Below, piece by piece: positions 9,210-60,365 of a stretch of DNA of 64,000 bases; position 1 is the stretch's first letter; each line of letters starts with the position of its first letter. Made by a program: the position numbers and the translations under genes. The DNA is from Lachnoclostridium sp. GTDB taxonomy: Bacteria; Bacillota; Clostridia; Lachnospirales; Lachnospiraceae. The notes below the pieces were generated by a model, which worked only from the letters and a program-made list of their open reading frames with translations, ran no database searches and was not told where the DNA came from. The stretch lies in NCBI GenBank assembly GCA_023665475.1, contig JAMPEB010000006.1, positions 30,607-94,606 on the forward strand, given 5' to 3'.

Positions 9210-9248
9210 AGGATTGATTTTTATGATTGCAGCGGAATGAGAGGAAAA

Positions 9249-14037: not shown

Positions 14038-14039
14038 AA

Positions 14040-14193
14040 GTGTGAACGGAATGAAGATTTTCTAAGGTTGGAAAGTACCCAACCTAAGAAAATCTAAATC
14101 ATTCCGCGAAGAATCCGCAAGCGGATTCTTCCGAATTTGTACGGATTTATTAGTTGTTTGTGTCTGGTGTGCAGGCATGACGAAAAGTGTGAG
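14040..14193 (+). repeat. Intergenic repeat element A1 (GTGTGAA-bounded, modules a+b+c) between gap and pgk
   Basis: Starts GTGTGAACGGAATGAAGATTTTCTAAGG... with a long hairpin (agattttctaaggttgg / ccaacctaagaaaatct) and a gaagaatccgc-aa-gcggattcttc hairpin. Ends ...GAAAAGTGTGAG. About 90% identical to A2. Confidence 0.8.
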
Positions 14194-14208
14194 AACTAGA
14201 TGACCTAT

Positions 14209-17937: not shown

Positions 17938-18010
17938 TTGTGGTATAATGATTCTGCTAACGCAGAATACAAGTCAGCTTGCGCTGCCTTTTCTGCGCTT
18001 GTGGTAGAAT
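17938..18010 (+). promoter_or_regulatory. Family C unit (shortened) plus a promoter for the PdaC-like lipoprotein gene
   Basis: TTGTGGTATAATGATTCTGCTAACGCAGAATACAAGTCAGCTTGCGCTGCC, then TTGCGC-17 nt-TGgTAGAAT (extended -10) ending about 40 nt before the ATG at 18050. Confidence 0.6.
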
Positions 18011-18049
18011 AAAAAGCAAACATGTAACAGTAAATGATAGAGGTGACTA

Positions 18050-29244: not shown

Positions 29245-29260
29245 CATCGAATTTCAAAAG

Positions 29261-29657
29261 TGGAGTAGACGGGAGTCGAACCCGTGTCCAAAAGCCCATT
29301 CCCTGTCCTTCTACTATCATAGTCCGTTATCCTGACCGGTCTTGCACCGGTCTGTTCCCGCCTGCAAAAGGAAACGAACAGCCTTTTGCATTTAGTAGCT
29401 TCATGATACGCCTATGCGCGCAAAGCTTAACGCATATCGTTTCTCACATGCTTTGATGCCCGGATTCCGAAGTGTGAGTGCTTCGGAGCGGACAAGCCGC
29501 CTGGGCGGCGTCACCTACAGCTTAGGCTGCAAGTGCGTACTGATAATTGTCTTCAGCGTTTAATTTAATTGCGCGAACATGGTTCGCTTTGCGATTAGCG
29601 TGTCGCAACGGATAGCTTCTCCAGCTGCAAAGCCCCTGTCGAAACCTTGACTACCCC
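29261..29657 (-). ncRNA. ssrA: tmRNA (ssrA)
   Basis: Minus strand: a 5' GGGGTAG pairs with the 3' CTACTCC acceptor strand. T-arm ACGGGTTCGACTCCCGT. Tag ORF ...AAUUAAAC|GCU GAA GAC AAU UAU CAG UAC GCA CUU GCA GCC UAA encodes (A)EDNYQYALAA. Confidence 0.85.
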
Positions 29658-32785: not shown

Positions 32786-33134
32786 TTGAAATCCGGCGGC
32801 GCGCATGGTATAATAATTCTGCTATCGCAGAATGCAAGTCAGCTAGCGCTGCCTTGCCCTCACAAAGCATAGGGACGCTTTGTGAGGCATTATACGAAAA
32901 TCCACTGCTTGAAAAGTAAATGCCCCTGCGGGGCGCTTCCTTTTCTGCGCTTGTGGTATAATGATTCTGCTATCGCAGAATGCAAGTCAGCTTGCGCTGC
33001 CTTGTCGCCGCGACGCGGCGCATTATACAGGTATCCATGGCTTGAAAATCAAATGTCTGCTGCGCAGCCGCTTGATTTTCCGCGCGCATGGTATAATGAT
33101 TCTGCTATACAGAGTTTGCAAAGGAGATTGGAAA
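32786..33134 (+). repeat. Tandem array of about 2.5 family-C units (each about 135-148 bp), extended -10 promoter followed by a 5' hairpin
   Basis: Unit starts: TTGAAA-17-TGgTATAAT at 32786..32814; TGgTATAAT at 32954..32962 and 33089..33097. Each is followed by ATTCTGC-TATC-GCAGAAT and GCAAGTCAGCTTGCGCTGCC. Units end with a small hairpin plus a T-rich tract. Confidence 0.75.
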
Positions 33135-41558: not shown

Positions 41559-42719
41559 ATGTATAAGATAAATTGCTTAAACCCTATTTCACAGGTAGGG
41601 CTTGTCAACCTGACAGAGAATTATCAGTTGACAGAGAATGTAAATGAGGCGGAGGGTATTTTGGTAAGAAGCGCTTCCATGCATGAGATGGAACTGCCGG
41701 ACGGTCTGCTTGCAGTGGCAAGGGCAGGCGCGGGCACCAATAATATCCCTTTGGATAAATGTGCGGAAAAGGGCGTGGTAGTTTTCAATACGCCCGGCGC
41801 GAATGCCAATGGAGTGAAAGAGCTGGTAGTTGCGGGTATGCTGTTGGCTGCCCGGGATATCATGGGCGGTATCGAATGGGTAAAGGATAACAGCAAAGAC
41901 GAAAATATTGCCAAGACGGCAGAGAAAGAGAAAAAGAAATTTGCGGGGACGGAGCTTATGGGAAAGAAGCTGGGCGTTATCGGTTTGGGCGCCATCGGCT
42001 GTAAAATCGCAAATACCGCAATCAGTCTGGGCATGGAAGTATACGGCTATGACCCTTATCTGTCCGTGAATGCGGCATGGAATATCAGCCGCAATGTAAA
42101 GCATGTTCTGAATGTGGAAGAAATTTATGCGGAATGTGATTATATCACCATCCATGTGCCTCTTTTGGATTCTACCAAAGGCATGATTAATAAAGATGCC
42201 ATCGATAAGATGAAAGACGGTGTGGTAATTCTGAATTTTGCGCGGGACCTTCTTGCAAACGAGCAGGATGTTCTGGAAGGCATTCAGAACGGCAGGATTG
42301 CGCGTTATGTGTCTGATTTTCCCAATCCCGTTACGGCAGGGCAGCCGGGCTGCATCGTGATTCCCCATCTGGGAGCCAGCACAGAGGAGTCCGAGGATAA
42401 CTGTGCAAAGATGGCGGTGGAAGAATTGATGGACTATCTGGAAAACGGAAATATCCGGAACAGCGTAAATTATCCCGCCTGCGACATGGGGGTCTGTACA
42501 GTGGCAGGCAGAGTGGCGATTTTCCATAAAAATATGGCAAATATGATTACCAAATTTACTGCGGAATTCGGTGAAAAAGGTATCAACATCAGCAATATGA
42601 CCAACAAATCCAAAGGCGAAGTGGCTTATACCATGCTGGATGTGGAGAACGCACCCACTAAGGAAATAGTGGAAGCCTTGGAGAAGATTGAAGGCGTATT
42701 CAGGGTGAGAGTAGTGTGA
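41559..42719 (+). CDS. serA: D-3-phosphoglycerate dehydrogenase (with C-terminal ACT domain)
   Basis: NAD-binding GxGxxG (GVIGLGAIG), catalytic His/Glu region and a C-terminal ACT domain. The stop codon TGA lies inside the GTGTGAA terminus of repeat element A3. Confidence 0.9.
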   Translation: MYKINCLNPISQVGLVNLTENYQLTENVNEAEGILVRSASMHEMELPDGLLAVARAGAGTNNIPLDKCAEKGVVVFNTPGANANGVKELVVAGMLLAARDIMGGIEWVKDNSKDENIAKTAEKEKKKFAGTELMGKKLGVIGLGAIGCKIANTAISLGMEVYGYDPYLSVNAAWNISRNVKHVLNVEEIYAECDYITIHVPLLDSTKGMINKDAIDKMKDGVVILNFARDLLANEQDVLEGIQNGRIARYVSDFPNPVTAGQPGCIVIPHLGASTEESEDNCAKMAVEELMDYLENGNIRNSVNYPACDMGVCTVAGRVAIFHKNMANMITKFTAEFGEKGINISNMTNKSKGEVAYTMLDVENAPTKEIVEALEKIEGVFRVRVV

Positions 42720-42888
42720 AAAGAATGAAGATTTTCTAAGCAGTCAAAGTACGCCTGCTAAGAAAATCTTATGTCATTCTTCGAAAAACGCCAAAAATGC
42801 GGCGTTTTTCCTTCAGGAGCCGAGAATTTGAGATTCTCGGCGCGGTGTCATTGCAGTAAACTGCTCTGACATGGAGGGTTAGTGTGAA
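42714..42888 (+). repeat. Intergenic repeat element A3 (modules a'' + d + e) between serA and the ygjP-like gene
   Basis: GTGTGAAAAGAATGAAGATTTTCTAAGCAG... hairpin. Then gaaaaacgcc-aaaaatgc-ggcgtttttc (module d, shared with A4), then gccgagaat-ttgag-attctcggc. Ends ...TTAGTGTGAATAAA. Confidence 0.8.
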
Positions 42889-43630
42889 TAAAAAAATCAT
42901 CGCAGAATTAAGGAGCGTCCCTTGTGAAAGAGGGGCGCTTACTTATCAGCTTTCGCGGAAAAAAGTAAAAAACATAAACTTACGGATAAAATCGGATGGG
43001 AGGATTCTGGTATCGGCGAATACAAGGGTTCCGGCGGCATATATCGATGAGTTTGTGCAGAAAAATCAAGAATATATTTTTCGGGTATTGGAAAAATTCC
43101 GGGAGAGACAGCAGACGCATCCCATGACTCCGAAACAGTATGTAAGCGGGGAAGATTTTATGATTCTGGGAAGACATCTGACTCTTCAAGTGAAGGAAAT
43201 AGCGGCGGGGAATGAGGCAGAGTCAGGTGAGAGGGTCTGTATGGAGGGCTCTGTACTTTTTCTTTTGGTGAAGGATAAGGATGATTTTAAGAGAAAAGAA
43301 AAGCTTATGAATAAGTGGCTGCAGAGTCTTCAAAGGGAAGTGTTTGACCGGATTTGTCAGGAAATCTATCCGGCGTTTGAGGGATACGGCATTGCATATC
43401 CGCAGATAAAAATAAGGCGTATGACCTCCCGCTGGGGCTCCTGTCAGCCTGCCCGGGGCATTATTACCTTAAACAGCAGACTGATAGAAGCGCCGAGGGA
43501 AAGTATTGAATATGTGGTTCTCCATGAATTTGCGCATTTTGTCCATCCCAATCACTCAAAAGATTTTTATGCTTTTGTGGCAAAGCTAATGCCGGACTGG
43601 AAAGAGCGCAAGGCGGTTTTGAACTCCTAA
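42884..43630 (+). CDS. YgjP/DUF45-family metal-dependent hydrolase (HExxH)
   Basis: ...YVVLHEFAHFVHPNHSKDFY... GTG start (RBS GGAGGG 5 nt upstream). The start codon lies inside the terminal GTGTGAA of repeat element A3. Confidence 0.75.
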   Translation: MNKKIIAELRSVPCERGALTYQLSRKKVKNINLRIKSDGRILVSANTRVPAAYIDEFVQKNQEYIFRVLEKFRERQQTHPMTPKQYVSGEDFMILGRHLTLQVKEIAAGNEAESGERVCMEGSVLFLLVKDKDDFKRKEKLMNKWLQSLQREVFDRICQEIYPAFEGYGIAYPQIKIRRMTSRWGSCQPARGIITLNSRLIEAPRESIEYVVLHEFAHFVHPNHSKDFYAFVAKLMPDWKERKAVLNS

Positions 43631-44415
43631 TTATCATTGTAATGAAGCTTCTGGCAAAGCAGCGTGAGCCTGCTTTTTACGGGCAGCAGCAAGAGATAAA
43701 GAATGCACCCATAAAAGATTCCCAGCAGGCATATGGGGAAGGTTGCGCCTGCCTGCATGAGAAAGAACTCTAAATTATCCTGCAGGGATATGCTAAAAAC
43801 GGCATAAATAAAACCTTGGGCGGTAACCAAAGCCCCGGCTATAAGAGAGGCGTTACCGGCAAGCTTTATGGCATTGCTGCAGTAAGCTGCCTCCTTTTCG
43901 CTATATTCTTTCCGGATATGAAAGAATATGGAAAAAGCCTGAAAAAAATATTTCCACTGCCTCGATACGCTTAACGCTAAAGTTGCCACAAGCAGTATAA
44001 TCAGAAATGTGGGCAAATCTAACCAGAGTGTGGTAGGCATATCCAGCCCAATGAGCAGGAACAGCATTACGAGGGCGATGATATTCAGTATCAGACTCAG
44101 GATTCTGAATATCAGATTGCTTTTATTTTCTTGCTTGCTTTTTTCTGTTTCATGTATAAGATTCATCATATTTTCCTCCGCTTTCCGGGAATAGCTGTCT
44201 TCCGACAGGTGCTCCCCTGATAAAAGTTCATTTACATTAATCTGTAAAATCTGACAAAGCGGCATCACGGAAGACAGCTCAGGCATACCGTTTCCGGTTT
44301 CCCATTTGGAGATGGTTTTGTCGCTGACGCCGATTTTGTCTGCTAATTGTCTCTGGGTCATCCCCATTCCCTTTCTTATGCTTGCAATAAATTTTCCAAT
44401 TTTAATTTGGTCCAT
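43627..44415 (-). CDS. XRE-family (Cro/C1 HTH) transcriptional regulator with a multi-TM C-terminal domain
   Basis: MDQIKIGKFIASIRKGMGMTQRQLADKIGVSDKTISKWETG..., an HTH_3 domain, followed by four or more TM helices. Confidence 0.8.
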   Translation of the reverse strand: MDQIKIGKFIASIRKGMGMTQRQLADKIGVSDKTISKWETGNGMPELSSVMPLCQILQINVNELLSGEHLSEDSYSRKAEENMMNLIHETEKSKQENKSNLIFRILSLILNIIALVMLFLLIGLDMPTTLWLDLPTFLIILLVATLALSVSRQWKYFFQAFSIFFHIRKEYSEKEAAYCSNAIKLAGNASLIAGALVTAQGFIYAVFSISLQDNLEFFLMQAGATFPICLLGIFYGCILYLLLLPVKSRLTLLCQKLHYNDN

Positions 44416-44533
44416 TTTTTCCTCTCTTTCCGCCGTGCAAACGGCATTTTAATCAGTGGGAACTTTGGGATGCGCAGCATCACAAATTCCGAGATTGAAA
44501 ATTTTTAATTTTCAATCTTTTAACCTCCTTCAT
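44413..44533 (-). repeat. Cassette B copy 1 (RBS, uORF, GC-rich spacer, RBS) immediately 5' of the XRE regulator ATG
   Basis: About 90% identical to 56265..56383 in the same orientation relative to the downstream gene. Contains the palindrome GATTGAAAATT-AAAA-ATTTTCAATC. Confidence 0.7.
44480..44515 (-). CDS. Candidate leader peptide uORF (MKIKNFQSRNL) of cassette B copy 1
   Basis: TTG start 8 nt after AGGAGG, 11 codons, TGA stop. Near-identical uORF in copy 2 (56282..56317). Confidence 0.35.
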   Translation of the reverse strand: MKIKNFQSRNL

Positions 44534-44710
44534 CCTTATTTATGCAGCCTTCCGCTCCTGCATCTGTCATCAATATAGGGGAAAGCTACATAATTGGGAA
44601 CTGTTTTTCCATAGAATTGCCTCCACGAACCGTAGAGGGCGCGGCAGCGGGGCTTCTCTGATTCAGAGAATGCCCGCAGAATCAAGAATAGGGCACGGCC
44701 GCCGTATCCA

Positions 44711-45658: not shown

Positions 45659-46900
45659 ATGGCACAAGTCAGACCTTTTCGGGCATATCGCCCAAAGTAT
45701 GGCCTTGAAAGCAAAATTGCGGCGCTTCCCTATGATGTGTACAGCAGGGAGGAAGCCTGTGAAGTAGTGAAGATGAATCCTTATTCGTTTCTGGGAATAG
45801 ACCGGGCGGAGACGCAGTTTGGACCGGAAGTGGATACTTACGCGCCGGAGGTTTATGAGAAAGCACATAGTATGCTGCAGGAGCAGATAAAGGAAGGCAG
45901 ATTTGTTCAGGAGGAAAGCCCCTGTTATTATCTGTATGAGCAGACCATGCAGGGGAGGAGCCAGACAGGTATTGTTGCCTGTGCATCCATAGACGATTAT
46001 CAGAATCAGGTAATCAAAAAACATGAAAACACCAGAGCGGATAAGGAGCAGGACCGCATCCGGCATGTGGATATTTGCAATATGCAGACGGGACCTATCT
46101 TTCTGGCATACCGTGCCAATCAGACACTGAGGGAAATTGTGGACAGCGAAAAGGAAAAATCCCCCGTATATGATTTTGTGTCGGAGGACGGTGTCGGACA
46201 CAGGGTATGGGTGATTGAGGACAGCAGACAGGTAGAAGCTGTTTCGGAAGCTTTTAAGGCTCTCCCTGCCCTTTATATTGCGGACGGACATCACCGCTGC
46301 GCTTCCGCGGTGAAGGTGGGGCTTAAGAGAAGAGAGGAACATCCGGACTATAGCGGAAAAGAGGAGTACAATTACTTCCTTTCCGTATTGTTTCCGGACG
46401 AGGAGCTGCATATTTTGGATTATAACAGGGTGGTAAAGGATTTGAACGGTCTTTCCGCGGAGGAATTCTTACGAAAAGTGGGCGAAAGTTTTATCATAGA
46501 GAAGGTGGGAAGTACCCCCTATGCCCCTGCAAAAAAGGGAAATTTTGGTATGTATCTGGAAAAAATGTGGTATGCTCTTACTGCGAAGGAAGAAATAAAG
46601 AGTGACGATGTAGTGGCGGGGCTGGATGTATCCCTGCTTCAGGATTATCTGCTGGCTCCCGTTTTGGGAATCGGGGATCCTAAGACGGACAAGCGGATTG
46701 ATTTTGTGGGCGGAATCAGAGGACTGAAAGAATTGGAGAGAAGGGTGGACACGGATATGAAGGTAGCATTTTCCATGTATCCCACTTCTATAGGCGAGCT
46801 GTTTGAGGTGGCGGACGCAGGCAGACTGATGCCTCCCAAATCTACATGGTTTGAGCCGAAGCTGCGGAGCGGTTTGTTCCTTCATGAGTTAGAGGTGTGA
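45659..46900 (+). CDS. DUF1015 domain-containing protein
   Basis: MAQVRPFRAYRPKYGLESKIAALPYDVYSREEA..., the typical DUF1015 N-terminus. RBS AAGGAG 8 nt upstream. The stop TGA lies in the GTGTGAA terminus of element A2. Confidence 0.8.
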   Translation: MAQVRPFRAYRPKYGLESKIAALPYDVYSREEACEVVKMNPYSFLGIDRAETQFGPEVDTYAPEVYEKAHSMLQEQIKEGRFVQEESPCYYLYEQTMQGRSQTGIVACASIDDYQNQVIKKHENTRADKEQDRIRHVDICNMQTGPIFLAYRANQTLREIVDSEKEKSPVYDFVSEDGVGHRVWVIEDSRQVEAVSEAFKALPALYIADGHHRCASAVKVGLKRREEHPDYSGKEEYNYFLSVLFPDEELHILDYNRVVKDLNGLSAEEFLRKVGESFIIEKVGSTPYAPAKKGNFGMYLEKMWYALTAKEEIKSDDVVAGLDVSLLQDYLLAPVLGIGDPKTDKRIDFVGGIRGLKELERRVDTDMKVAFSMYPTSIGELFEVADAGRLMPPKSTWFEPKLRSGLFLHELEV

Positions 46901-47063
46901 ACGGAATGAAGATTTTCTAAGGTCGGAAAGAACCTGACCATAGCGCTGAAGCGCATGGAAAATCTAAATCATTCCGGGAAGAATCCGCAAGCGGATTCTT
47001 CCGAATTTGTACAGATGTACGAATTGTTTGTGTCTGGTGGGCAGGCATGACGGAAAGTGTGAA
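46895..47063 (+). repeat. Intergenic repeat element A2 (modules a' + b + c) between the DUF1015 gene and glgB
   Basis: Starts GTGTGAACGGAATGAAGATTTTCTAAGG. Module b is identical to A1 (gaagaatccgcaagcggattcttc). Ends GGAAAGTGTGAAAAG. Confidence 0.8.
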
Positions 47064-47162
47064 AAGAATTTCATCTTATGTGCCGCCGGCAAAAAGGCAG
47101 CGGAATAGATTCGTTTTGCAAATATTGTGCCTGCGGCTCAAATTCGCAGGTTGCGGAAAGGT

Positions 47163-56117: not shown

Positions 56118-56235
56118 TGTGAAAAGTACCTCTAAAGCTCATGCCAAAGGGCATTTCGCTAAGAGGTACTAAATTTCACACCCGAAAAACGCCCAAAATG
56201 CGGCGTTTTTCCTCTTGATTTAAGGTTGGTGTGAA
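56117..56235 (+). repeat. Intergenic repeat element A4 (variant hairpin + module d) between smc and ftsY
   Basis: GTGTGAAAAGTACCTCT...AGAGGTACTAAATTTCACAC hairpin. Module d cgaaaaacgcccaaaatgcggcgtttttcc matches A3. Ends GGTGTGAAAAG. The final G of the smc TAG stop is the first G of the element. Confidence 0.75.
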
Positions 56236-56264: not shown

Positions 56265-56383
56265 ATGGAAGGAGGGTAAGATTGAAAATTAAAAATTTTC
56301 AATCTCGGATTTTGTGACGCTGCGCGCCCCAAAATCCTCACTGATTAAAATGCCGCTTGCGCGGCGGAATGAGAGGAAATATG
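56265..56383 (+). repeat. Cassette B copy 2 (RBS, uORF, GC-rich spacer, RBS) immediately 5' of ftsY
   Basis: About 90% identical to the reverse complement of 44413..44533. It ends with the conserved GGCGGAATGAGAGGAAATATG (copy 1 has GGCGGAAAGAGAGGAAAAAATG). Confidence 0.7.
56282..56317 (+). CDS. Candidate leader peptide uORF (MKIKNFQSRIL) of cassette B copy 2
   Basis: TTG start 5 nt after AGGAGGG, 11 codons, TGA stop. The peptide differs from copy 1 by a single residue (N to I). Confidence 0.35.
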   Translation: MKIKNFQSRIL

Positions 56384-57367
56384 AACGGAGAATGGGAAGG
56401 GATGGACAGCCGGGAAGAAGCTTCCAATCCCGAAGAAAACGGGACAACGGAGAAAAAGGGTTTTTTTGCCCGTCTGAAAGCAGGACTTACCAAGACCAGA
56501 GATAATATTGTGAAGGGCATTGATTCCGCATTCAGCGGATTTTCTTCCATTGACGAAGATTTTTATGAAGAGCTGGAAGAAGTCCTGATTATGGGGGATA
56601 TCGGTGTAAATGCCACTACAGCCATAGTGGAGCGCCTGAAAAAACAGGTGAAGGAACAGCATATCAAGGAGCCTTCCGGCTGCAAACAGCTTCTGATTGA
56701 CAGCATAAAGGAGCAGATGCGGGTAGATGAGACGGCTTATGAATTTGAAAAAGAGCAGTCCATTATGATGGTAATCGGCGTAAACGGCGTGGGGAAGACC
56801 ACCACGGTGGGAAAGCTGGCAGGCAAGCTGAAACAAAGCGGCAAGAAAGTTTTGATTGCGGCGGCGGATACTTTCCGGGCGGCAGCGGGAGACCAATTGG
56901 CGGAGTGGGCGAGAAGAGCCGATGTCCCCATGATTGGCGGAACAGAAGGCGCCGACCCTGCAAGCGTGGTGTATGATGCGGTAAGCGCTGCCAAGGCAAG
57001 GGGAGTGGATGTGCTTTTGATTGACACCGCAGGAAGGCTGCATAACAAGAAAAACCTCATGGAAGAACTGAAAAAAATGAACCGTATTATTGACAGGGAA
57101 TATCCCAATGCCCACAGGGAAAATCTGATTGTGTTAGACGGCACCACAGGGCAGAATGCCTTAGTGCAGGCAAGGGAGTTTGGCGAGGTGGCAAAACTCA
57201 CAGGCATTGTGCTGACCAAGATGGACGGAACCGCTAAGGGCGGCATTGCCGTGGCGATTCAATCGGAGTTAGGCGTTCCGGTAAAATATATCGGAGTGGG
57301 CGAGACCATTGAGGACTTGCAGAAATTTAATTCGGACGAGTTTGTAAATGCACTCTTTGAAGTATAG
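56381..57367 (+). CDS. ftsY: Signal recognition particle receptor FtsY
   Basis: Acidic N-region, then the NG domain (...MVIGVNGVGKTTTVGKLA..., DTAGR, TKMDGTAKGG). Start placed at the ATG at 56381, after cassette B; the track TTG start at 56357 lies inside the repeat. Confidence 0.85.
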   Translation: MNGEWEGMDSREEASNPEENGTTEKKGFFARLKAGLTKTRDNIVKGIDSAFSGFSSIDEDFYEELEEVLIMGDIGVNATTAIVERLKKQVKEQHIKEPSGCKQLLIDSIKEQMRVDETAYEFEKEQSIMMVIGVNGVGKTTTVGKLAGKLKQSGKKVLIAAADTFRAAAGDQLAEWARRADVPMIGGTEGADPASVVYDAVSAAKARGVDVLLIDTAGRLHNKKNLMEELKKMNRIIDREYPNAHRENLIVLDGTTGQNALVQAREFGEVAKLTGIVLTKMDGTAKGGIAVAIQSELGVPVKYIGVGETIEDLQKFNSDEFVNALFEV

Positions 57368-59777: not shown

Positions 59778-60365
59778 ATGACAGATCATGAAATGTTAAA
59801 GGAGATACTTTCGGGGGTTCAGGCACTGCAGGCAGAGCAGCAGGAAATGAAAGCGGATATCAGTGGCCTGAAATCAGAAGTCAGTGGCCTGAAATCAGAA
59901 GTCAGTGGCCTGAAATCAGAAGTCGGCAGCCTGAAACCAGAAGTCGGCAGCCTGAAATCAGAAGTCGGCAGCCTGAAATCAGAAGTCGGCAGCCTGAAAT
60001 CAGAAGTCGGCAGCCTGAAACCAGAAGTCGGCAGCCTGAAATCAGAAGTCCATGACCTGAAAGAGGAGATGCAGATGATACAGACCCAGCAGAAGGAAAT
60101 GCGGGCGGAGATCAAGGAGATGAAGTCAGACATAAGGGGTCTGAAATCGGAGAGTCAGGAGCTGAATTGGAAAGTGTCAAAACTCAGTCTGCATGTTGAA
60201 AATGAAACAGACAGGAACATTCAACTGGTTGCCGAGAATTTTATCGACTTAATCAACAAGCTGAATCAGGCGATTCCTGCAGCCGACAAAAATCTTGCCT
60301 ATGAAGTAAAGGTCAATTATCTCATTAACGAAGTTGACAAAGTGAAAGAAAAACTGGCAATGTAA
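59778..60365 (+). CDS. Coiled-coil protein with a nine-fold perfect heptad (GSLKSEV / SGLKSEV) repeat
   Basis: Strong RBS GGGAGGA. 21-bp tandem repeats in frame across 59861..60049. C-terminal alpha-helical region with no recognisable catalytic motif. Confidence 0.6.
   Translation: MTDHEMLKEILSGVQALQAEQQEMKADISGLKSEVSGLKSEVSGLKSEVGSLKPEVGSLKSEVGSLKSEVGSLKSEVGSLKPEVGSLKSEVHDLKEEMQMIQTQQKEMRAEIKEMKSDIRGLKSESQELNWKVSKLSLHVENETDRNIQLVAENFIDLINKLNQAIPAADKNLAYEVKVNYLINEVDKVKEKLAM
59861..60049 (+). repeat. Nine tandem 21-bp repeats (cagtggcctgaaatcagaagt x3, cggcagcctgaaaYcagaagt x6) inside the CDS
   Basis: Read directly: near-perfect 21-mers. In-frame, so copy-number change keeps the frame and adds or removes heptads. 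Confidence 0.9.

Follow-up and report, generated by a model that had tools for sequence, protein, structure and literature searches.

The stretch of DNA considered here (the window) comprises 64,000 nucleotides (nt) of contig JAMPEB010000006.1 from Lachnoclostridium sp. and holds two copies of a short repeat, one directly upstream of ftsY and the other, on the opposite strand, directly upstream of a gene for an XRE-family helix-turn-helix (HTH) protein. The repeat is probably a small (97–102 nt), non-coding, non-autonomous element dispersed among Lachnospiraceae, which brings a replacement Shine–Dalgarno sequence (SD) into the spacer between the SD and the ATG of the genes it precedes. The initial annotation of the window had noticed a block of ~120 base pairs (bp) that occurs twice at ~90% identity, adjoins a start codon in the orientation of the gene, and includes in both cases a frame of 11 codons. 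These observations hold once the block is trimmed: MAFFT and a repeat finder, applied to the 64-kb window, delimit an inverted pair at 44418–44519 (minus strand) and 56278–56379 (plus strand), 102 nt long and 90% identical without gaps. The features of both loci are as follows.

56278..56379, plus strand: first copy of the element, 102 nt, subfamily A, in the SD–ATG spacer of ftsY (118.8 bits with model R1)
56269..56276, plus strand: native ftsY SD (AAGGAGGG), stranded ~100 nt 5' of the ATG and outside the repeat (binds the anti-SD at -15.6 kcal/mol)
56279..56305, plus strand: hairpin H1, AGATTGAAAATT/AATTTTCAATCT, 12 bp with an AAA loop, holding the TTG (predicted fold)
56282..56317, plus strand: TTG-started 11-codon frame MKIKNFQSRIL plus stop, an incidental open reading frame (ORF)
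56307..56338, plus strand: hairpin H2, GGAUUUUG..GACGC-UGC-GCGCC..CAAAAUCC (predicted fold)
56339..56351, plus strand: single-stranded linker CACTGATTAAAAT, the same in 9/9 subfamily-A copies
56352..56365, plus strand: hairpin H3, GCCGC-TTGC-GCGGC (predicted fold)
56366..56379, plus strand: element-borne replacement SD region (GGAATGAGAGGAAA), 1 nt from the ftsY ATG
56381..57367, plus strand: ftsY, 328 amino acids (Pfam; N-terminus conserved in the orthologous locus L009)
44418..44519, minus strand: second copy of the element, 102 nt, subfamily A, in the SD–ATG spacer of the XRE gene (127 bits with R1)
44524..44530, minus strand: native SD of the XRE gene, AAGGAGG, stranded 5' of the element
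44480..44515, minus strand: TTG-started 11-codon frame MKIKNFQSRNL plus stop, in the second copy
43627..44415, minus strand: gene for the XRE-family HTH protein, 262 amino acids, with a hydrophobic C-terminal half
9230..9247, plus strand: probable 3'-end remnant of the element (CAGCGGAATGAGAGGAAA, 18 nt), 1 nt before a mnmA-like ATG, matched weakly by R1 (10.7 bits, E = 2.8)

The gene downstream of the first copy encodes FtsY (SRP54 GTPase, E = 3e-76; Pfam domains SRP54 and SRP54_N), and that downstream of the second a protein of 262 amino acids with an HTH_3/XRE domain. Both copies end in GAGAGGAAA, followed after 1–2 nt by the ATG, and both contain the frame TTG AAA ATT AAA AAT TTT CAA TCT CGG A(T/A)T TTG TGA. 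On the 5' side, AAGATTG marks the limit of identity, and the run of purines before this motif is different in each copy; the AAGGAGG that the initial annotation had included in the block falls outside the repeat. By contrast, the main gene does take its ribosome-binding site from the repeated unit, which carries an SD at its 3' end. No further full copies are detected in the window with the hairpin-1 pattern and model R1, and 100 shuffled controls yielded 0 such matches.

Orthologous sites in related sequences, drawn from about 0.5 Mb of retrieved loci (designated L followed by a number), show that the element has been inserted as a discrete unit into the A-rich spacer that separates the SD of a gene from its start codon. 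At the XRE locus, an orthologue with 94% protein identity (L013) holds the empty site GGAGGTTAAAAAAATGG, where the window reads GGAGGTTAAAA[GATTG...GAGAGGAAA]AAATGG, with the element in brackets; filled and empty sites differ by exactly 100 nt, and the placement is ambiguous only within the A run. The more distant orthologues L014 and L015, which serve as outgroups, lack the element as well. Similarly, the ftsY orthologue of L009 (96% identity) has a smc–ftsY spacer of 27 nt with the empty site ...GAGAGGAGGTAAGTATG, against GGAGGGTAA[GATTG...GAGAGGAAA]TATG in the window (junction ambiguity of at most 1 nt), and the ftsY locus in L012 is also empty. Judging by these orthologues, the empty state is therefore ancestral at both loci of the window. 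A third site, upstream of an AP_endonuc_2 gene, is polymorphic within Gallintestinimicrobium propionicum, where six strains read GGGGAAAGAGGGAAATAACATGG and three others carry 97 additional bases after GGGAAA. The inserted length at orthologous sites is 97–100 nt, and the ATG is already present in the empty sites, so the start codon is that of the host. The ends of the element (AAGATTGAAAA... and ...GAATGAGAGGAAA) are not complementary and form no terminal inverted repeats (TIRs). No target-site duplication (TSD) can be assigned at the loci of the window beyond an ambiguous A or AA, nor is there one of constant length across the loci compared; at the polymorphic AP_endonuc_2 locus, the element is flanked by a perfect direct repeat of 11 nt.

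The portable nature of the cassette, proposed from the two copies in the window, is borne out by further copies in other genomes: the same discrete unit precedes ~30 unrelated genes in at least three organisms. A pattern scan of public genomes found five copies in the metagenome-assembled genome (MAG) JAMPEY01 of Lachnoclostridium sp. NALB_7861_22, whose orthologous DNA is 93–97% identical to the window. Two of these five are orthologues of the window copies; the remaining three are found upstream of a carA-like gene, a VWA-like gene, and a gene located 3' of a rnhB-like gene, respectively. A metagenome scan identified two shortened copies in another Lachnospiraceae assembly (ERZ777305), upstream of genes for DUF4387 and ACT-domain proteins, and inspection of the same contig added a third, more diverged copy. 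Subfamily B was recovered by BLAST in a phage collection, with at least 21 copies at 21 places of 18 human faecal scaffolds labelled "UNVERIFIED Bacteriophage sp." (L016–L034; GenBank MT836138–MT839492). Exact look-ups showed that proteins encoded by these scaffolds are identical to DnaB, Fur, and thioredoxin of Gallintestinimicrobium propionicum, which identifies the sequences filed as "UNVERIFIED: Bacteriophage sp.", on the evidence of their proteins, as chromosome fragments of this species.

The position of the copies is uniform. All 24 full-length copies lie in sense orientation, on the same strand as a long ORF directly 3', and end 0–4 nt before the start codon of unrelated genes (ftsY, dnaB, trxA, fur, carA, and others), with a distance from GATTG to ATG of 98–102 nt in the 16 copies measured. 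Seven of the eight shortened copies also precede an ORF of the same strand. The downstream genes of the family include dnaB, trxA, fur, and those for a P-type ATPase, a CobW-like GTPase, and an M42-like peptidase, among others, and the targets share no functional theme. Scans of viral contigs with two patterns and of a plasmid collection returned no copies, and a match in a Bdellovibrionales coding region (L003) was dismissed as a chance hit of the genome scan. Rfam holds no family that matches either subfamily at gathering or permissive thresholds, the best hits being below threshold and unrelated, and a literature search returned analogues but no description of the element. Intergenic regions near two element copies show sub-threshold similarity to the Rfam Clostridiales-1 RNA (L021:731–809 and L016:1883–2038, 33 and 28 bits, gathering threshold 48).

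Exact look-up of the FtsY and XRE products of the window gave no match, because the genome is outside the collection or because the start is annotated at an ATG inside the element. Such an internal ATG (GGAATGAGAGGAAAnATG; 56369–56383 of the window) is in frame with the gene start, and gene callers add MRGNM or MRGKM to the protein, resulting in an FtsY of 332 instead of 328 amino acids and a DUF4387 protein of 110 instead of 106. An FtsY 100% identical to that of the window (P0001) is assigned in NCBI to a "Bacteroidales bacterium" MAG; its source contig is probably a mis-binned piece of Lachnospiraceae DNA.

Since the insertion point lies just before the ATG, at a distance of 1–4 nt, the native SD of the gene stays behind, 5' of the element. 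In a set of 22 copies, the 18-nt 5' flanks, all different in sequence, bind the anti-SD with a mean of -8.45 kcal/mol, compared to -2.69 for an upstream control segment; binding is observed for 16/22 flanks and 2/22 controls (p = 3e-6). The SD carried by the element binds the anti-SD in 22/22 copies. The ribosome-binding site attributed to the short frame in the initial annotation is, consequently, not a part of the module but the SD of the target gene, stranded by the insertion. This native SD is dispensable: the element is present at the dnaB locus of ten out of ten strains, and in five of them a stretch of 12 nt containing the native SD has been deleted, with the element unchanged. Given that dnaB is essential, its translation would therefore have to come from the SD of the element itself.

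Both subfamilies exhibit three successive predicted hairpins followed by ~15–20 unpaired, purine-rich nt that hold the SD. H1 (GATTGAAAA(T/A)T / A(A/T)TTTTCAATC) is common to both and invariant in six subfamily-A copies; the initial annotation had recognised it as a perfect palindrome around AAAA, which is right about the palindrome but not about its form, GATTGAAAATT-AAA-AATTTTCAATC, with arms of 11 nt and a loop of 3 nt. Compensatory changes in H1 comprise a U-A/A-U flip that separates the subfamilies and, in L027, a replacement of A-U by C-G. In H2 and H3 the sequence differs between subfamilies, with place and size kept. Within subfamily A, CG is replaced by UA at the H2 pair (alignment columns 41:49) of three copies and at the H3 pair (columns 79:84) of the XRE copies; one-sided changes on the sense strand of subfamily-B H2 give G·U pairs in 11 cells against mismatches in three. 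The 13-nt linker CACUGAUUAAAAU is invariant in nine of nine subfamily-A copies from two organisms and absent from subfamily B. The antisense strand folds with better z-scores in subfamily A; the sense strand is favoured because of the G·U pattern and the position of the element. None of the predicted folds pairs the main SD, and neither a promoter-like (sigma-70-like) nor a terminator-like site is predicted on the sense strand of the element. Two other pairings were rejected: a long-range helix proposed by RNAalifold for the two subfamilies together (columns 41–48 with 86–93), which stems from a doubtful alignment of non-homologous H2 and H3 where single folds prefer local hairpins, and an anti-SD pairing of the H2 3' arm with the main SD, which is not conserved between copies.

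Once inserted, copies are better conserved than the intergenic DNA next to them. When the window is compared with the MAG, 1 of 102 positions is different in the XRE copy and 3 of 88 in the ftsY copy, as against an identity of ~88% for the intergenic DNA just 5' of the XRE copy and 95–96% for the flanking coding DNA; likewise, the dnaB copy is nearly invariant in ten strains. Paralogous copies differ by 3–8%, so homogenisation appears unlikely as the source of this conservation. H3 and the SD are kept in all of the nested, 5'-shortened copies, in agreement with the SD being under selection from the moment the gene depends on it.

These data point to an element that would be transcribed within the mRNA leader or the intercistronic region, with translation of the gene starting from the SD that it carries. 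Stop codons are found in all three frames within its first 40 nt, and these, together with the lack of a terminator and the SD at the 3' end, would render the insertion non-polar and tolerable even before essential genes (ftsY and dnaB, for example). Selection after insertion is proposed to keep the three hairpins, in view of the compensatory changes, the sense-strand G·U pairs, and the conservation of orthologous copies above that of their flanks, and they probably act in cis on the transcript, through its stability, its processing, or the binding of a protein or RNA. With regard to its spread, the element resembles, by analogy, a derivative of a single-strand (HUH-type) transposon. Recombination or template switching guided by SD homology could do the same, given that the left flank of the target (SD plus A run) resembles the right end of the element; such homologies would allow crossover or later conversion, and would also supply direct repeats for precise loss.

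Several points weigh against an SD-carrying mobile element. BLAST and model searches of the ~0.5 Mb of loci found neither a transposase nor a longer autonomous relative with the same ends, so mobility is argued from comparative evidence only. The empty alleles could, in principle, come from precise deletion, and at the polymorphic AP_endonuc_2 locus filled and empty alleles each occur on two haplotypes. The flanks at the left junction share only AA, which leaves the choice of target unexplained. Within subfamilies, covariation statistics are weak at the low divergence of the copies, and the eighth shortened copy is a decayed fragment 3' of merR with no gene following. Finally, transcription of the element, the use of its SD, and its folding as RNA are predictions from sequence.

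Among the alternatives, one has the element spread by recombination or by template switching during replication, with SD-like purine microhomology as the guide and no dedicated transposase; it may be entertained tentatively, although it is on the unlikely side. The native SD and the SD of the element form a pair of SD-like direct repeats that bracket the element, and at the polymorphic AP_endonuc_2 site its last 11 nt equal the native SD (AAAGAGGGAAA) rather than the family consensus, a tendency also seen in L016 (10 nt), L025 (8 nt), and L028 (7 nt). Such a process would account for the exclusive location, the fixed orientation, and the absence of TIRs and of a fixed TSD. It would also suit the two window copies, which are found on opposite strands with the GC skew constant, and show that orientation follows the gene and not the replication fork. 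However, the match of 3' ends to their own flank as opposed to that of other copies is marginal (p = 0.06), most copies carry the consensus 3' end whatever the native SD, and the microhomologies are short (2–11 nt). Furthermore, the 5' junction is sharp at AAGATTG in more than 20 copies, as would be expected of an end cut by an enzyme.

A second alternative puts function first and regards the element as an RNA leader exapted for cis regulation, to which a shared trans factor (a protein, small RNA, or metabolite) binds, in which case ftsY, dnaB, trxA, fur, carA, and others would be under one post-transcriptional control and mobility would merely have built the regulon; this proposal is possible but doubtful. 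The conservation data are compatible with such a shared leader: orthologous copies change less than the flanking intergenic DNA, the hairpin layout persists across subfamilies despite the turnover of sequence, and the 13-nt linker does not vary among nine subfamily-A copies of two organisms. A precedent exists in Neisseria REP2, a repeat found upstream of co-regulated genes (PMC3184786). Nevertheless, the target genes have no common functional theme, the linker is missing in subfamily B, no Rfam family matches, and the decay of copies from the 5' side, until only H3 and the SD are left, agrees with selection on just the SD. A bolder version, of a comparably speculative standing, would combine both alternatives into an undescribed kind of DNA mobility that homes to translation-initiation regions, with copies exapted as the shared structured leader of dozens of housekeeping genes. 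Recognition could then take place via SD-like homology at the right end or via a recombinase, and ftsY, dnaB, trxA, fur, carA, and others of abundant human-gut Lachnospiraceae may come under common post-transcriptional control.

The palindromic H1 has also been read as a DNA operator, either for the neighbouring XRE regulator, which would give autoregulation, or for another dimeric HTH protein, with the spread of the element making a regulon. H1 is indeed a perfect palindrome (11+11), conserved more strongly than any other part of the element and nearly the same in subfamily B, and one copy precedes the XRE gene. This explanation is improbable, though. The palindrome is absent upstream of the XRE orthologues in L013, L014, and L015, including those with proteins 94% and 60% identical, which share a different upstream block, and the XRE gene is only one among many targets. 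The changes in H1 keep its pairing (the U-A/A-U flip and the A-U to C-G replacement), and copies persist in which H1 is lost or interrupted (L002, L007, L008, L030–L032, and a trxA copy interrupted by another repeat). Moreover, the element is found 3' of promoters or within operons, a poor position for a repressor. The different block, located 5' of the XRE gene (44560–44640, minus strand; CTACGRTTCGTGGRGGCAATTCTAYGGAAAAACAGTTCC ... CCTATATTGAT), is conserved in L013, L014, and L015 even at 60% protein identity, and represents a better candidate than the palindrome of the element for the promoter or operator of the regulator.

The 11-codon frame had suggested a leader peptide whose translation would control the gene by ribosome stalling or alternative hairpins, with its conserved frame, stop, ribosome-binding site, and distance to the main ATG as the signature of an attenuator. 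Six subfamily-A copies do hold the frame and stop intact behind an SD-like run 4–8 nt before the TTG, and the stop, at nt 40 of the element, falls within the 5' arm of H2, so that a translating ribosome would open H1 and H2. This arrangement appears instead to be a by-product of insertion. The element starts with AAGATTGA, by which the TTG takes the former place of the ATG in hairpin 1, 4–8 nt behind the displaced native SD; as the TTG is set at SD distance from that native SD, a short ORF results, without conserved length. The SD before the frame belongs to the host, differs at each locus, and is deleted in five of the ten dnaB alleles. Rather than synonymous variation, subfamily A displays only non-synonymous changes at its variable sites (K4R, and I/N/T at codon 10), whereas in subfamily B frameshifts and stops leave the frame with 8, 12, 15, 19, 29, or 33–41 codons, or fused to the gene, and the TTG is replaced by TTC or TTA in two copies (L026 and L028). 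The shortened copies L002, L007, L008, and L030–L032 have lost the upstream ORF (uORF) and retain the 3' module at the ATG. In addition, neither a terminator nor a hairpin sequestering the main SD is predicted. The attenuator reading is thus largely refuted on comparative grounds, and very little likelihood remains for it.

Lastly, a recent segmental duplication or chance similarity within this genome, suggested by the presence of just two full copies in the 64-kb window, is refuted, with next to no probability left, by similarity that ends exactly at the 102-nt borders, as the initial annotation had supposed for a discrete cassette, by ~30 copies at other loci and in other organisms, and by shuffled controls without matches.

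Regarding known systems, the closest analogues of the SD-carrying element are Neisseria REP2 and the mycobacterial MIRUs. REP2 and the Borrelia IR repeats are dispersed, lack TIRs, form internal RNA stem-loops, lie directly upstream of ORFs, and carry a ribosome-binding site, and REP2 also carries a promoter and an ATG (PMC3184786). The element shares with REP2 its place directly upstream of ORFs, the supply of a ribosome-binding site, the internal hairpins, and the lack of TIRs. Unlike REP2, it has no detectable promoter, uses the ATG of the host, retains the native SD upstream, and forms three hairpins instead of two; its sequence is unrelated and its hosts are Firmicutes. MIRUs are short repeats, apparently mobile, whose insertion at start codons follows a single orientation and minimises the effect on the downstream gene, and the stop of their internal ORF overlaps the gene start with a coupling of -4 nt (PMC12548453). 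The element also inserts at start codons in one orientation; contrary to MIRUs, its internal frame lacks conservation and in most cases stops a long way from the ATG, with no coupling, and it relies on the SD that it carries. MIRUs often occur in tandem arrays, whereas the copies of the element are single and their hairpins conserved. By this analogy, the element belongs to neither group: it meets the same problem with a carried SD, without promoter or coupling, in an unrelated sequence, and in Clostridia.

Other small repeats are more distant. Correia (CREE), ERIC, BOX, and RUP repeats are non-coding, multicopy sequences of ~100–150 nt, co-transcribed and foldable, some of which alter mRNA stability or expression (PMC3184786). 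The element resembles classical miniature inverted-repeat transposable elements (MITEs) in being short, non-coding, multicopy, and polymorphic for presence or absence. It differs from these MITE-type repeats, which hold TIRs and a TSD such as TA and insert at many intergenic positions in either orientation, in lacking TIRs and a fixed TSD and in being confined to the SD–ATG spacer, in the sense orientation only. A classical MITE of ~140 nt (TIR GTAACTGTTC, 8-bp TSD GAAAAATA) is nested within H1 of the trxA copy (L033:2661–2830; L045–L052, ~1260–1400) in eight out of eight Gallintestinimicrobium strains examined, and its TIR and TSD contrast directly with the absence of both in the element.

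Elements of the IS200/IS605 type, such as palindrome-associated elements (PATE) and REP/RAYT, lack TIRs and TSD, insert in an oriented manner, and hold hairpins near their ends. The element is likewise orientation-specific, with neither TIR nor TSD. On the other hand, its outer hairpins are unrelated to each other (H1, AT-rich, 11–12 bp; H3, GC-rich, 5–6 bp), its left end has no conserved target of 4–5 nt but AA only, no Y1 transposase was found nearby among the ~0.5 Mb of loci, and the two copies of the window are on opposite replication strands. In leader-peptide attenuators (erm, cat, and amino-acid operons), a short ORF with an SD precedes the gene and is followed by hairpins. The element exhibits the same succession, an SD-preceded short ORF and then hairpins, but neither the peptide nor its length is conserved, no terminator or SD-sequestering alternative is predicted, and the SD of the uORF is dispensable.

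Stops, the lack of a terminator, and a replacement SD would make a mobile repeat tolerable before essential genes, as a natural counterpart of engineered non-polar cassettes. In Gallintestinimicrobium, a common genus of the human gut, the translation signals of core genes would have been rewired in this way. The element also poses the question, shared with MIRUs and Neisseria REP2, of how DNA is targeted to the few bases between SD and AUG, and should a factor bind its hairpins, the family would amount to a post-transcriptional regulon that is mobile. For annotation, screens for uORFs and small RNAs will flag the element repeatedly.

Further repeats are present in these genomes. The spacers of Gallintestinimicrobium vary between strains (L035–L044), with 141, 282, or 396 nt between dnaB and merR and 221–462 nt between the genes for PFL and PFL-activase, and differences of ~100–140 nt suggest additional small mobile repeats. 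In the window, the smc–ftsY spacer holds a second, unrelated insert (56119–56228), which is absent in L009 and belongs to a stretch also missing from the MAG (L002). Its ends are inverted (GTGTGAAAAGTACCTCT and AGAGGTACTAAATTTCACAC), with an intrinsic terminator after them at 56184–56211; GTGTGAAAAG is repeated at 56119 and 56229, and related pieces are found at L002:3099–3170 and L007:3239–3301.

Another repeat family of ~160 nt (14039–14195, 46894–47065, and 42713–42769) starts directly after stop codons and forms a long hairpin (GAATGAAGATTTTCTAAGG... / ...CCTAAGAAAATCTAAATCATTC), with copies 75–92% identical. A promoter-like block (TGGTATAATGATTCTGCTA.CGCAGAAT...) occurs four times (17938–18021, 32803–32863, 32934–33011, and 33069–33108), three of them within 300 nt, with no tRNA gene nearby. 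The window also contains a transfer-messenger RNA gene at 29258–29657 on the minus strand (Rfam, 128 bits), with the tag peptide AEDNYQYALAA, and nine tandem units of 21 nt (59806–60078) within the ORF at 59778–60365, which encodes a heptapeptide repeat protein.

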